IMG/VR virus record: IMGVR_UViG_3300024325_000122
Span: 1 to 37,965 of that record
DNA length: 37,965 bases
Direction: 5' to 3' (one strand)
Origin: a virus
Lineage: Duplodnaviria > Caudoviricetes
The translations under genes were made by a program, and so were the position numbers. Of this stretch, positions 4,106 through 34,200 are shown in pieces (within the stretch, counting starts at the first letter, position 1; each line of letters starts with the position of its first letter). The notes under the pieces are model-generated. The model saw nothing but the letters and a program-made list of their open reading frames with translations, had not been told where the DNA came from and ran no database searches.

Positions 4106-4494
4106 CGATCACCCTTCCGGGCCGCGTCCCGAGCAAGAAGAACTCAAAGCGCATCATCCTCGCTGGCGGCCGTCCCCGGCTCATCTCTTCCGAAGCATTC
4201 CTCACGTGGCACGTAGAGATGATGCTGAGGGTTCGGCGCTTCCGCCCGAAGGTGCCGATCGCCCGCGCCTCTGTCGCTATCACCCTTTTTGCTGAGTCCC
4301 GCCGCAGGTTCGATCTCTCGAACGCCGCGGAGAGCGTGATGGACCTCCTGGTCGATGCGGAGATCCTCGCGGATGACTCCTGGGCGGTCGTGCCGGAGCT
4401 GACGCTCAAGTTCGGAGGCGTAGAACCGGAGGGCGCGCGAACAGAAATTCAACTCACCAATTACCCAGAACATGAAAAGGCTCTTCCTGAATGA
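4102..4494 (+). CDS. rusA: RusA-like Holliday junction resolvase
   Basis: PSKKNS, RRFDLSN...MDLL...ILADD catalytic pattern. Confidence 0.85.
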   Translation: MTITLPGRVPSKKNSKRIILAGGRPRLISSEAFLTWHVEMMLRVRRFRPKVPIARASVAITLFAESRRRFDLSNAAESVMDLLVDAEILADDSWAVVPELTLKFGGVEPEGARTEIQLTNYPEHEKALPE

Positions 4495-6118
4495 AAAAAC
4501 TTTCGTTGACCTGCCACGCCTTCTCGAAACGAGGCTGCTTCTGCAGGCCAACTCTGGAGGAGGAAAATCTTGGGCAATTCGACGGATCGCTGAGCAGGCA
4601 GCGGGAAACGTTCAGACGATCATCATTGATCTTGAAGGCGAGTTCGCTTCGCTTAGAGAGAAGTATGACTTCATCCTCGCCGGCAAGGGGGGCGACACGC
4701 CCGCTGATCCTCGATCCGCGGCCCTCCTAGCCAGGCGCCTCCTTGAACTCGGCGTCTCGGCGATCATCGATCTCTACGAGCTGCACCCGCAGGAACGGAA
4801 GCACTTCGTGCGTCTCTTTCTTGATTCGATGATGAACGCTCCGAAGGAGCTGTGGCATCCCTGCCTTGTGATCGTGGACGAGGCACACGTCTTCTGCCCG
4901 GAGAAGGGGGAGTCCGAGGCTATGAGTTCGGTAATCGATCTCATGACGCGAGGCCGCAAGCGCGGCTTCTGCGGCGTGCTGGCTACCCAGCGCATCTCGA
5001 AGCTCCACAAGGACTCGGCGGCCGAGTGCAACAACAAGATGATCGGCAGGAGCTCGCAGGACATCGACATGAAGCGAGCATCCGAGGAACTTGGCTTCAC
5101 CTCGAAGACCGACATGCTTTCCCTTCGAGATCTCGAAGCCGGCGAGTTCTATGTTTTTGGCCCGGCTATCTCGCGCCGCGTTGAGCGGATTCAGGTCGGC
5201 GACGTTTCAACATCGCACGCTAGGGGAGGAGCTGCCGGACTCGCAAAGGCGTCCACGCCGAAACCTACGCAAAGAATCCTTGCGATGCTTCCAAAACTTG
5301 GCGACCTCCCGAAAGAGGCAGCCGAGGAAGCTCGCACCGTCGCGGATCTGAAGAACGAGATTCGCACGCTCAAGGCCCACCGGTGCACAACTGCGCCCGA
5401 TGAAGCCGCGACCAAGCGTAACGTCGAAGCGGCGCTTAGGGACCAGGAGAAGCGATTCAAGATCCGCGAGGCCGACATCCTCCGGGGCGTGAAGGGCATA
5501 ACGGACTTCGTGGCTGATGTCGTGAAGCGCGGCCAGCATGTGCTGCACGTACCGACCGTCACAATCGCCGCACCGCAGTTCCTTGTGACAACGCCTCAGC
5601 CTCCCGCCATCCCAAAGGCGCAGTCGCCCGATCGCCCGGCGCCCGATGGCACGTTGCCGCGGCAGGCCGCCCACATCCTCGGAGTTCTTTCGTCCCGGCA
5701 TCCAACGTCGCTCACCCGATCGCAGCTTGCTACGCTCGCCGGAGTGAGTCCGAAGAGCAGCACCTACGCGAACAGTCTCTCGATCCTGAATGTCTCAGGC
5801 TTCATTCGCAAGCACGGGGACCTGATCTCGATGACTCCCGCTGGCTTCGATGTCAGTGGTGCCGCGCCGGAAGTGCCAACGGATCTCGCTGAAGTCCGCC
5901 GAATATGGAAGGAGAAACTCCCCTCTGGCGCATCTCGGCTATTCCAGGCTCTCGAAGGCCCGCATCCCGATGCACTGAGCCGCGACGATCTTGCAAAGGC
6001 CGCCGACATGTCCCCCACGTCCAGCTCGTTTGCGAACTACCTGAGCATGCTCAATACGAATGGGCTGATCACTAAAACCGAAGGCGGCATTCGGCTCTCG
6101 GAAACACTATTCGACTAG
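4472..6118 (+). CDS. HerA/DUF87-like P-loop ATPase with C-terminal tandem winged-helix-like domains
   Basis: Walker A ANSGGGKS, Walker B IVDEAH, GRKRG and ATQR; two C-terminal repeats (LTRSQLA.../LSRDDLA...). Confidence 0.85.
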   Translation: MKRLFLNEKTFVDLPRLLETRLLLQANSGGGKSWAIRRIAEQAAGNVQTIIIDLEGEFASLREKYDFILAGKGGDTPADPRSAALLARRLLELGVSAIIDLYELHPQERKHFVRLFLDSMMNAPKELWHPCLVIVDEAHVFCPEKGESEAMSSVIDLMTRGRKRGFCGVLATQRISKLHKDSAAECNNKMIGRSSQDIDMKRASEELGFTSKTDMLSLRDLEAGEFYVFGPAISRRVERIQVGDVSTSHARGGAAGLAKASTPKPTQRILAMLPKLGDLPKEAAEEARTVADLKNEIRTLKAHRCTTAPDEAATKRNVEAALRDQEKRFKIREADILRGVKGITDFVADVVKRGQHVLHVPTVTIAAPQFLVTTPQPPAIPKAQSPDRPAPDGTLPRQAAHILGVLSSRHPTSLTRSQLATLAGVSPKSSTYANSLSILNVSGFIRKHGDLISMTPAGFDVSGAAPEVPTDLAEVRRIWKEKLPSGASRLFQALEGPHPDALSRDDLAKAADMSPTSSSFANYLSMLNTNGLITKTEGGIRLSETLFD

Positions 6119-6308: not shown

Positions 6309-7145
6309 TTGAGCATCTTGGAACTCTACTTCGACGAAAGCGGTCACTCGGCGGACAAGCCACTGATCGTCATGGCTGGGTACCTAGCTCCCTCTGAACA
6401 GTGGGTCGGGTTTGCAGACGAGTGGAACGCAGCTCTCATCAAAGCCGGCGTCGTTCTAGCAAATGGCGCACCCGGCCAGTTTCACATGACGGACTGCGAA
6501 GCCAAGCGCAGAGCATTTGAAGGTTGGACAGAAGGCCAGCGGCGCTCGCTCTTGGGCGACTTAATGGCTACGATCGAACGTCATCGACTGCACGCCACTG
6601 GTTTCGTTATTTCGACCGAATGGTGGAAGACCATTGACTGGAACGACGAACACCCCGACCACTTGGCTCTCGAAGATCCGTATCACCACGCGATGCAGAA
6701 CGCGATCGCCACAGCTTTGACCATGACGAATGAGCCGATCGCGGCGCCCGAGCTTTTCGCGCCGACTGGCGTCAAGTGCGTCTTTTCGCAACAAGGTGAG
6801 TTTCAGGGGAGAGCGACGGCGTACATGGCAGCTCTATCCCATTTTCTATCGACAGCCCGGCCTGGATTCGAGCCCTTGACATACGGCGACCCCGCGAAGC
6901 TGCCGCAGCTCCAAGCCGCGGACATCGTGGCCTTCGAATTTCGATGGCGACTCACGAGACCAGACATCGACAGATGGCCGATGCGCCAGATCATCAACAG
7001 CAGGCGCGCGATGTTCGCCGGTATGCCACAAGGCATTCTTGACAACGCAAACCTCGGCGGAGAAGTAAGACCGATCGAGTACCCGACCCAAGTTCTCCAG
7101 GTCGGCGAGGAGTTAGCGAACAAACTGCGAAACCCTACGCCTTGA
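6309..7145 (+). CDS. DUF3800-family (RNase H-like) protein, cargo gene
   Basis: YFDESG N-terminal motif, FHMTD, C-terminal LQAADIVA. Confidence 0.85.
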   Translation: MSILELYFDESGHSADKPLIVMAGYLAPSEQWVGFADEWNAALIKAGVVLANGAPGQFHMTDCEAKRRAFEGWTEGQRRSLLGDLMATIERHRLHATGFVISTEWWKTIDWNDEHPDHLALEDPYHHAMQNAIATALTMTNEPIAAPELFAPTGVKCVFSQQGEFQGRATAYMAALSHFLSTARPGFEPLTYGDPAKLPQLQAADIVAFEFRWRLTRPDIDRWPMRQIINSRRAMFAGMPQGILDNANLGGEVRPIEYPTQVLQVGEELANKLRNPTP

Positions 7146-8088
7146 GCTTGTCCATGTGCTTCTTCATCAGCTCAAGACGGTATCGGCCGTTATCCTTGTG
7201 TCGCACCGCCAACCCGTGCCGATCCGGGTAGAACGTGTATGCATCTAGACCCGCCGCTCTCAGGAACGCTTCTACCTCATTCCTCATGTCCGGCCTTAGT
7301 ATGAACTTTTGCAAACGCCCCGATTTCAAGAGCGCTGGAAATTCCTTGTCGAGCGGCTCAAACGAATCGCCACTCATCGTAAAAGCTGACTTCTGCGCGG
7401 TCATCCTCGCATTTGTGAAGTCCGGGGGCACCGCGATCGTTCTCAGGACAGTTTTTCCAGGAGTCAAATACTTCGGATGCCATAACCGAGCATCGAACAC
7501 GTTCTCCTCATCAGCTTCCATGTCCGAAGGATTATCGAGCGCAATCAACCCGTCACGCCCCTGGCTCTGCTTATTCAGCGCTTGCGGGTCAAGCATCCAG
7601 ATCGCAGCATTCTTTTTCGGGTCATGGCACTTGTCACATGAGATCGACAGCGCGAAATAGGCCGCGCATCCCAAGCTCTCTGTCCAATCCAGCATCCGCG
7701 TGATCTGGCCGTAGTGCTGCATCGCGAACACGATGCCCCAATCTGTTTTCTCGCCGTGATCGAGCAACGGCCACGCTGAAGCCCGGAAGCCTCGATACTC
7801 TGTCTTGTACGTCGACCGCAGAAGATTTATCTGTTCATCTGGTTTCGGCTGAAGCTTGAGCTTCTTTAAGAACTCTTCGACCTCTCGGTGCAACGTAGAC
7901 TTCAACTCAAAAGTCTCATCGGGAAGACCCCGATACCACGCGAGTGAGCCATCCATCCGCCACTCTTCCGCCAGTTTCCCCGCCGTCTCCACGATCTTCG
8001 CCCAGCTCGTTTCCTTCTCGACAGCCGCAACCTCTTCCACAACTCCTCCAGCTCGACGCACAGCCTTCCGCCTTGACGCTTTCCCCAT
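7135..8088 (-). CDS. FRG-domain protein, cargo gene
   Basis: WYRG, MQHYG..TRMLDWT, AAYFA, NARMTAQ..FT motifs; start placed at ATG 8088 (uncertain). Confidence 0.88.
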   Translation of the reverse strand: MGKASRRKAVRRAGGVVEEVAAVEKETSWAKIVETAGKLAEEWRMDGSLAWYRGLPDETFELKSTLHREVEEFLKKLKLQPKPDEQINLLRSTYKTEYRGFRASAWPLLDHGEKTDWGIVFAMQHYGQITRMLDWTESLGCAAYFALSISCDKCHDPKKNAAIWMLDPQALNKQSQGRDGLIALDNPSDMEADEENVFDARLWHPKYLTPGKTVLRTIAVPPDFTNARMTAQKSAFTMSGDSFEPLDKEFPALLKSGRLQKFILRPDMRNEVEAFLRAAGLDAYTFYPDRHGLAVRHKDNGRYRLELMKKHMDKLKA

Positions 8089-33437: not shown

Positions 33438-33485
33438 TTATCCACACCCTAACCCGTTGAAGCCCACGAGATCGTCCGGTACGAT
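33438..33485 (+). promoter_or_regulatory. Perfect DnaA box followed by sigma70 promoter
   Basis: TTATCCACA (33438-33446); TTGAAG (33457-33462), 17 nt, TACGAT (33480-33485). Confidence 0.7.
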
Positions 33486-33489
33486 AAAG

Positions 33490-34200
33490 GAGCACATTAC
33501 ATCGGTCTCATGGTTATTGTTTCATCTGATTGAGCGATGAAACACAGCCCTGCCTTGCGCTCAATCCGCAGGGCAGTTTTGTTTCTTGAGAGCTGGCGGT
33601 CCGCGCGGACCCTACCCAAGGGGTGAGACACAGGGTTGGAAGGATGTCTCCGCGCCAGCTCTCAGGGCGCAAGCTCTGAATGGTTGTGCGTTGAGAGGCG
33701 AGCGGTAGATAGCATGGGTCCGGCGGAATGGTTGGACCTGATAAAGGCGTGAGAACCAAAAGTCTCACGGGCTTCCTCTACCAACCGCCTCCCAGCGCAT
33801 GACCGAGATAGTTCTTTGAGTGATGGGTGTGCGAATATCTTATGGAAATGGAGAGGACCCGCTACGGTCGGTCGTTATCGATAAGGCCGCACTGCCGCCG
33901 GATCTGATCACCCGGAGGTGCAACGGAGAAAAGAGGTTCGACTCCTCTACCCATCACTCAGCGAATTTAGATCGCTGGGATCGCTCGCTAGATAGAGCGC
34001 CGGATTTCTCCGGGAAGGTATCTAGCCCTTCAAATACTCGACTCAACTCCGGCTCATGTCCGAGGAACACCAGTACCCTGACCTTTTCAGGGGTGGGCTA
34101 CCCTCATGAGAGGAGGAAGGAGAGGAAGAAGGGGCCTGCCTTTGGTTTCAATGGGGGGAGCCGGTAGGGTGTCGCACAATATAAATCAGGAAAACACTTC
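33490..34200 (+). ncRNA. Large multi-domain structured non-coding RNA (unclassified)
   Basis: No credible CDS; successive closed helical domains with G-U pairs on the + strand; kissing loops; tRNA-like T-arm. Confidence 0.75.

Follow-up and report, generated by a model that had tools for sequence, protein, structure and literature searches.

A prophage array of swappable RNA cassettes with flanks resembling rRNA operon signals of the likely host family

The window, the 37,965-base stretch of DNA analysed here in full, is a provirus record that encodes a terminase, a capsid protein, an SSB, an HTH gene and, at its right end, a tyrosine integrase. Between the SSB/zinc-finger block and the integrase end lies a region predicted to be expressed as RNA, and related prophages carry an array at the same place. 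Three genomes that GTDB titles Thermoanaerobaculia contain homologues of this array, and the integrase of the window is 80% identical to one encoded by a prophage within a same-family genome; thus, by sequence likeness, the host of the window phage itself is likely a member of the Thermoanaerobaculia (Acidobacteriota). All host-named loci among the 16 homologous loci are Thermoanaerobaculia prophages. A second type of element also harbours some of the arrays; it encodes TraD-like ATPases along with a primase, plus a terminase in one instance. In the flanks of the loci L171 and L172 (L219, L223), two TraD/TrwB-like ATPases and a primase stand beside phage genes. Within the window, a 257-aa ORF and a convergent FRG-domain gene (6372-8088 and 4472-6118) lie ahead of the terminase and disrupt the order of the phage genes. 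They are preceded by a HerA-like ATPase and may represent defence or moron genes.

A sequence-only reading of the window had proposed a multi-domain structured RNA of about 700 nt, built from five closed domains (A to E). The helix and promoter strings that it quoted are all present where it placed them, and the region is indeed structured and conserved on the + strand; its make-up is not fixed, since A, B and C can be swapped and vary in number. The 721-nt region folds at z = -6.06, with 0 of 20 shuffles folding as well, and z ≤ -3 is reached on the + strand by 4 of 34 sliding 150-nt windows, all within 33550-34099. Helices A, B (with three G-U pairs) and C have pair probabilities of 0.72-1.0 in the ensemble of 33490-34200. 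The same reading saw no credible CDS here. A 115-aa GTG ORF (33820-34167) does exist and is judged not to be a gene because, in the closest relative, its 5′ half gives way to unrelated sequence and its 3′ half carries a 1-nt insertion.

The RNA was also thought to be undescribed, and no Rfam family fits the window: nothing reaches the gathering threshold, and the five sub-threshold matches at E ≤ 10 were all rejected. Among the homologous loci, four give nothing at E ≤ 1 and eleven give one chance match. The Thr/Leu leader matches merely cover hairpin 2 of the leader and the U-tract that follows it. A weak match to YrlA (Y RNA-like) scores 18 bits against a cut-off of 69 (E 1.1) and spans two modules that do not move as a pair. 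TIGR-Tas was rejected since no Nop domain occurs in the HNH protein or in the 21 other window proteins scanned, and the units span 36-276 nt. Group I and II introns, RNase P, SRP, 6S, self-cleaving ribozymes and K-turn C/D boxes were likewise dropped, no match having been found.

Pattern scans, a leader covariance model and DNA searches yielded 16 distinct homologous loci, 15 with a leader and one partial (L193); L037, L087 and L174 are identical and counted once. In the common layout (Table 1), a promoter precedes a two-hairpin leader; then come the cassettes, from none to at least four, and finally a terminal domain of one of three types. The loci range from 389 to 1012 nt in length. The leader is missing only from L193, in which one cassette and the D/E terminal domain (1393-1735) lie amid host genes beside a beta-lactamase-family gene; this is probably a prophage remnant. 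The relative G001, whose capsid protein is 100% identical to that of the window, contains the same locus minus the HNH gene. In its alignment with the window the junctions are kept and the 3′ domain (D/E) is 97% identical; A, B and C share no sequence likeness in their interiors, though their stems still close. Among four other full-length capsid relatives (69-76%), the array has no DNA match in three.

Table 1. Features of the array and adjoining gene in the window.
Feature	Position	Strand	Remarks
DnaA-box-like 9-mer TTATCCACA	33438..33446	+	Just upstream of -35; only perfect copy in window
Sigma-70-type promoter TTGAAG-17-TACGAT	33457..33485	+	Predicted; 8/12 consensus bases
Leader	33518..33576	+	Hairpin 1 (33518-33544), hairpin 2 (33550-33576); loops pair 33528-33536 with 33558-33566
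U-tract after hairpin 2	33577..33589	+	Terminator-like; is also the first boxA-like word (GTTTCTTGA, 33581-33589) and 5′ strand of cassette A closing helix
Cassette A	33586..33679	+	TTGA, 72-nt core (33590-33661), TCAG, trailer (33662-33679)
Cassette B	33682..33804	+	Outer helix 33682-33693/33793-33804, 97-nt core (33695-33791)
Cassette C	33811..33977	+	BoxA-like GTTCTTTGA (33811-33819), 138-nt tRNA-shaped core, TCAG, trailer hairpin
Terminal domain, part D	33982..34031	+	Pseudoknot; hairpins 33982-33999, 34000-34013; loop pairing 33987-33994 with 34019-34026
Terminal domain, part E	34026..34169	+	Long irregular rod 34026-34133, invariant purine-rich 3′ strand, then variable hairpin
Terminal stem, 5′ arm TGTCGCA	34170..34176	+	3′ arm missing in window
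HNH/zinc-finger ORF, 89 aa	34201..34470	+	Accessory passenger at terminal stem; Pfam HNH 20.8 bits, cut-off 21.4

True arrays made up 1/7, 2/5, 2/7, 4/8, 3/8 and 4/6 of the viral loci returned by pattern scans, the remainder being chance. The metagenome scan gave 4 true arrays among 119 loci (37 of 64 parts covered; 90 of the 119 also run with the leader model), and the genome scan gave 3 among 8. L180, L181, L077, L184, L187, L196, L204, L208 and L212 were excluded as ordinary terminators or chance matches. The leader model matches in 6 of 124 genomes of the likely host family. In samples of the phylum, with few candidates scored per genome, it found 2 of 151 genomes, both already in the set, and a DNA query found 2 of 401, one already known and one by chance. 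A blastn search of GenBank phages gave a single 36-nt chance match.

The promoter credited to the RNA is present as a string and stands as a prediction. With 8/12 consensus bases, it was not listed by the promoter scan because the scan needs 9 matches. Of the 15 homologous leaders, 12 have a promoter-like site with at least 7/12 matches in the corresponding position (best site per locus, no shuffle control). Just upstream lies a 9-mer that we take to be DnaA-box-like. It is found within one mismatch in 8 of the 13 loci with a promoter candidate (the window and seven others; background 0.007 per 45 nt), placed 10-20 nt upstream of the array -35, and is reversed and more distant in L034, L125 and L179. 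This element could link the promoter to the replication state of the host, or serve as a phage repressor site.

The five-domain description lacked the kissing-loop leader. The two leader loops differ in sequence between loci, yet they are complementary over 6-9 bases in 15 of 15; when loops are swapped across loci, the mean falls to 4.3 complementary bases, and 27 of 210 pairings reach 6. Across the leader hairpins, 94% of cells are paired and 6 of 22 pairs have changed on both sides. Two-sided changes are found in both the leader and the terminal domain, which supports a conserved structured RNA region.

In all, 28 cassettes were parsed in the 16 loci, with cores of 36-276 nt and BLAST likeness in two pairs only. 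The parser was run on 16 coordinate-delimited regions; in random 420-nt stretches it finds one cassette in 10 of 100 and never two. It requires YTGA and YCAG, both of which were first seen in the parser-free alignment with G001. The invariance of TTGA and YCAG is therefore by construction, and the upstream GTTYY is the only free test. Cassette number runs from zero in L179, which comprises a leader, a U-tract, an ORF and a terminal domain, up to four in L037, where one entry merges two units. Once the opening word and trailer are included, a closing helix of 19-27 predicted bp is obtained for 28 of 28 cassettes. The inner halves of this helix vary in sequence between cassettes and retain their pairing. 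The outer half (no shuffle control) contains many G-U pairs, and in 21 of 28 cassettes its competitor is a 3′ trailer hairpin with an energy of -8 to -14 kcal/mol; the trailer of cassette A, for example, has two options, pairing with the boxA word or forming a GCAA hairpin. In L034, the position of cassette A is taken by a core with no relation to that of the window. On sequence comparison, then, A, B and C are exchangeable cassettes that vary in number, not fixed domains of one RNA. Within the core of cassette A, GAGACA (33625-33630) is complementary to TGTCTC (33645-33650), a possible pseudoknot.

Since units are gained and lost whole and a tyrosine integrase lies 2.7 kb away, the stems might instead act as DNA, in the manner of integron-like recombination sites for the insertion and excision of cassettes. 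However, the G-U pairs are kept on the + strand, and loop-loop pairings, like T-arms, are meaningful in RNA alone. In addition, the flanks match rRNA signals, the short shared linkers would permit ordinary recombination, and the integrase sits at the prophage end, as expected for the integration of the prophage itself. We regard this explanation as very improbable.

Known settings of boxA are rRNA operons and lambdoid nut sites, along with CRISPR arrays and the leaders of a few mRNAs. The word GTTYYTTGA opens 21 of the 28 cassettes (13 of 14 first cassettes, 8 of 14 non-first and two of the three in the window), though 13 of these 21 matches are one homologous site at the end of the leader. 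In flanking DNA the word is found at 12 of 2151 TTGA sites, and the whole window holds three, two of them within the array. The full word is missing from 7 of 28 cassettes, including B, whose opening word, GTGCGTTGA, deviates from boxA. The 3′ word is YCAGGG in 12 and YCAGCG in 13 of the 28. In the rRNA leaders of the host family, GGTTCCTTGA occupies the boxA position and is paired with a TCAGGG trailer like that of the phage. In each of three operons inspected, the leader GGTTCCTTGAC pairs with the TTCAGGG trailer after the 16S gene at -35.7 to -46.3 kcal/mol, and similar words also stand ahead of the 23S gene. The opening word of the phage is nearer to the rRNA word of the host family than to the boxA of Escherichia coli, UGCUCUUUAACA, or that of Bacillus subtilis, AUGAUCUUUGAAA, which binds NusB (excerpts of PMC13753749; both words also in excerpts of PMC5725501).

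In E. coli, boxA recruits the antitermination complex; this complex has been proposed to anchor the 5′ strand during loop-out until the trailer emerges, and RNase III cleaves the resulting leader-trailer helix (excerpts of PMC10250234 and PMC8632103). E. coli RNase III requires a helix of 11 bp adjoining its cut site and, in the distal box, favours U-A next to U-G (excerpt of PMC1540722), while the Aquifex enzyme does not rely on that box (excerpt of PMC3074117). The fixed core of the cassette helix places U-G beside U-A, the pair type of the E. coli distal box with polarity and distance left aside. Genes for NusB and RNase III are present in each of the 5 genomes tested for them. In the host, boxA overlaps with the processing helix, and for this reason the similarity of the phage flanks bears jointly on NusB binding and RNase III recognition and cannot separate them. 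An unpaired GTTC, which would have singled out NusB, was rejected, as GTTC can pair with the trailer. In the 16S-23S spacers of the host operons L200 and L201, the 16S trailer can alternatively pair with a boxA-like word just downstream, a two-way pairing that the phage linker hairpin offers in miniature.

The resemblance of the cassette stems to the rRNA flanks of the host's relatives suggests that the prophage likely borrows the host rRNA machinery to make and release small RNAs. The explanation that we favour, with some confidence, is an array expressed in the style of an rRNA operon, in which Nus factors likely assist transcription and RNase III likely does the cutting. Use of the host Nus machinery is the more probable of its two components; release of the cassettes by RNase III appears somewhat better than an even chance. 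RNA polymerase would start near 33492 and could be halted by hairpin 2 and the U-tract, which would thereby act as an attenuation point. NusB-S10 would then bind each boxA-like word, shielding the long untranslated RNA from Rho and holding the 5′ strand while the cassette loops out. Once the trailer pairs back, a helix of about 20 bp would close, freeing the complex to reload at the next word. RNase III would finally cut the closing helices to give separate, clamped RNAs. The earlier suggestion of processing into subdomains comes close to this scheme, and likewise stands as a prediction from sequence.

That hairpin 2 and the U-tract score as a terminator in the window, and that L179 retains the leader and U-tract without any cassette, would also suit a cis-acting antitermination or attenuation tract, in which the leader resembles HK022 put, the boxA-like words resemble lambda nut sites and the interiors are tolerated inserts. 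Here put is a double hairpin of about 65 nt near the promoter (excerpts of PMC8632103). The double hairpin of the array is conserved; to count as a put-type antiterminator it would have to modify RNA polymerase. However, there is little downstream to read into, a convergent gene follows in the window, and the cores fold well (z ≤ -2 in 23 of 28, a value that includes the closing stem selected by the parser), with six keeping tRNA features. For the region as a whole such a tract is rather improbable; for the leader alone, it can be compatible with the expression array.

The expression array would work like an rRNA operon but is not one, as no Rfam match to 16S or 23S rRNA is found in the window. 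The two share a boxA-like word on the 5′ strand and a helix of about 20 bp or longer that closes a looped-out RNA, repeated for each unit. Unlike an rRNA operon, the array is prophage-borne, wraps swappable RNAs of 36-276 nt and small ORFs, and has a kissing-loop leader and terminal domains without an rRNA counterpart. The early mRNA of T7 is likewise a polycistronic phage RNA processed by RNase III. Similarly, RNase III frees an sRNA and small proteins from the polycistronic dicBF RNA of the Qin prophage; its content is fixed, in contrast to that of the array, and repeated boxA-headed stems around each unit are not described in the excerpted text (bioRxiv 10.1101/2023.04.14.536235). A literature search for boxA-headed RNA cassette arrays in phages found no published account, though the supplements of surveys might contain the motifs. 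If this explanation is true, a prophage that repeats the host rRNA wrapper around exchangeable RNAs would represent a new use of boxA and a new route to phage small RNAs. It would offer a compact natural test of the model in which the Nus complex holds the 5′ strand until its partner appears, and the wrapper suggests a ready design for polycistronic RNA expression. The array yields about 28 undescribed candidate RNA genes, along with new conserved motifs (the leader, D/E and the two other terminal domains).

The D/E terminal domain occurs in 11 loci, one of them ended by a contig edge, and the D/E alignment comprises 10. The second type is found in L037 and L171 and the third in L038 and L183; the sequence of L125 ends before its terminal domain. 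D had been described as a plain stem. The pairing is real, and it forms the loop-pairing helix of a pseudoknot, with both-sided change in 4 of 8 pairs. Helix E as quoted is outcompeted by the rod: it is absent from the minimum-energy fold, has probability 0.0 and keeps 7-8 bp in only 5 of 10 homologues, while the rod at 34026-34133 covaries. The quoted pairing may still arise as a second pseudoknot. In the D/E structure 95% of cells are paired and 13 of 35 pairs have changed on both sides, vs at most 3 in slid controls, counts that lean towards the model because the structure was drawn from the same sequences. D/E carries no boxA-type closing helix. The 3′ arm of the terminal stem is present in 9 of 10 loci, lying 12-25 nt on in eight and 292 nt on, past the HNH gene, in L182. 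The second type (oriented 2610-2830 in L037, 3515-3745 in L171) and the third (L038:2285-2545; after the first cassette of oriented L183) are each seen twice, have no Rfam match and contain a boxA-like word.

The two covarying loop-loop pairings, in leader and terminal domain, raise the alternative of one large, unprocessed RNA similar to ROOL or GOLLD, in which the leader and D/E would multimerise through loop-loop contacts and the cassettes would be variable inserts, exposed on its surface or lodged within it. In prophages, ROOL and GOLLD are large structured RNAs in which a variable linker joins conserved 5′ and 3′ halves and kissing loops form between molecules (excerpts of PMC12286853). 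The array shares with them kissing loops and a variable middle. However, one leader type goes with three terminal domains, the length varies from 389 to 1012 nt, and the cargo includes ORFs. In a crude test, the leader pairs more strongly with its own terminal domain in only 1 of 8. The middle of the array consists of repeated, punctuated units and its 3′ domain is exchangeable, unlike in ROOL and GOLLD, and the covariance models of both families find no match in the window (at gathering or at E ≤ 10) or in 15 homologous locus records. A single large RNA is thus considered unlikely.

The HNH protein has 89 aa, as the sequence-only reading had it. That reading also suggested that the RNA possibly forms an RNP with this protein. 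As the point of the locus this is not supported, since the gene is absent from 8 of the 10 complete loci that have this 3′ domain, and there the terminal stem is closed. Where HNH does occur (the window and L182), it sits at the terminal stem, replacing the 3′ arm of the stem in the window and lying inside the terminal-stem loop in L182. The two proteins are 49% identical, and across 124 family genomes the window HNH has a close match in the L182 copy alone. An alignment of 16 proteins shows no change at the zinc cysteines or the HNH histidine. Relatives are found as stand-alone proteins (three close ones in one search, 145 at E ≤ 0.001 in another), and none was confirmed in viral contigs. Insertion in a hairpin loop is the pattern of homing-type passengers, and we read the gene from its distribution as a passenger (homing-type or one more cargo gene), not as the partner of the RNA.

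HEARO/omega RNA accompanies IscB, an obligate adjacent nuclease with HNH plus RuvC domains, and TIGR-Tas combines a Nop-domain protein with short repeat-spacer units; like these, the array has a structured RNA adjoining an HNH-containing ORF. The RNA could accordingly be pictured as the scaffold or guide of the small HNH, as in HEARO/omega RNA with IscB, and the recurrence of one HNH subfamily at the same terminal stem in two loci, with the second locus its only close match in 124 family genomes and the zinc and HNH residues invariant, would agree. Unlike in those systems, the HNH is small, single-domain and mostly absent, even from the relative with a 97% identical D/E, there is no RuvC or Nop domain and no short spacer array, and insertion in a hairpin loop suits a homing-type passenger or cargo gene. 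A guide role seems highly unlikely.

Some of the cargo is tRNA-shaped. In 4 of 28 cores (shuffled mean 0.01, maximum 1 in 500 sets) a T-arm sits at 9-10 nt from the core end, the position it takes on a 7-bp acceptor stem, and a D-loop word occurs in three; together these give 6 tRNA-shaped cassettes among 28, by patterns composed after seeing the sequences. In cassette C, a 7-bp acceptor-like stem (33822-33828/33949-33955) is stacked on a T-arm (33932-33948), an arrangement shared with three cassettes of relatives and with tRNA and YrlA. Unlike a tRNA, C has no regular anticodon arm or D arm; it is not called by ARAGORN at default or by Rfam, and is detected only at a relaxed ARAGORN threshold. 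ARAGORN at default finds 0 tRNAs in the window and homologous loci. The second cassette of L171 nonetheless scores 32 bits with the Rfam tRNA model, above its cut-off of 29; an insert of 41 nt takes the place of the anticodon arm, and ARAGORN at default is negative. No shape could be assigned to the other 22 of the 28 cores. Small ORFs without an assigned function lie within two cassettes, and a similarity search with the cargo ORF of L178 returns only unnamed look-alikes. Two further ORFs, in two prophages of one genome (L182:851-1093, - strand; L179:1613-1846, + strand), resemble the Acb2/Tad1 hairpin domain (28.6 bits in L182 against a cut-off of 27; 23.8, below the cut-off, in L179). They lie just before D/E, outside any TTGA-YCAG stem, and their best solved-structure matches are weak (E 0.31 and 0.89). 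Proteins of the Acb2/Tad1 family act as anti-defence sponges.

The tRNA-shaped cassettes, small ORFs and Acb2/Tad1-like ORFs form the whole basis for a tentative view of what the array is for, namely that it carries an accessory payload, variable in content, with which the prophage would deal with its host, counter-defence being the likeliest role, through tRNA-shaped decoys and a nucleotide-sponge-like protein. More speculatively, the array might be a swappable library of RNA genes, in which an rRNA-mimicking wrapper lets the host rRNA chaperone complex fold any inserted RNA or small gene during transcription, before it is cut out as a stable molecule with clamped ends. The payload would then be a new class of RNA counter-defence that includes tRNA-shaped decoys against tRNA-attacking immune enzymes, an extension that we hold to be doubtful.

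Other tRNA-like sequences are found among the homologous loci. L176:1701-1820 contains a tRNA above the Rfam cut-off, with an extended anticodon arm and a long variable arm, that ARAGORN misses. In L038:2098-2277 and the first cassette of L039 (oriented 2020-2273), tRNA-Leu-like cores have a T-loop interrupted by an insert. These inserts pair back with a bulge-helix-bulge-like geometry, share 22 identical bases at their start and are possibly tRNA introns at an unusual position.
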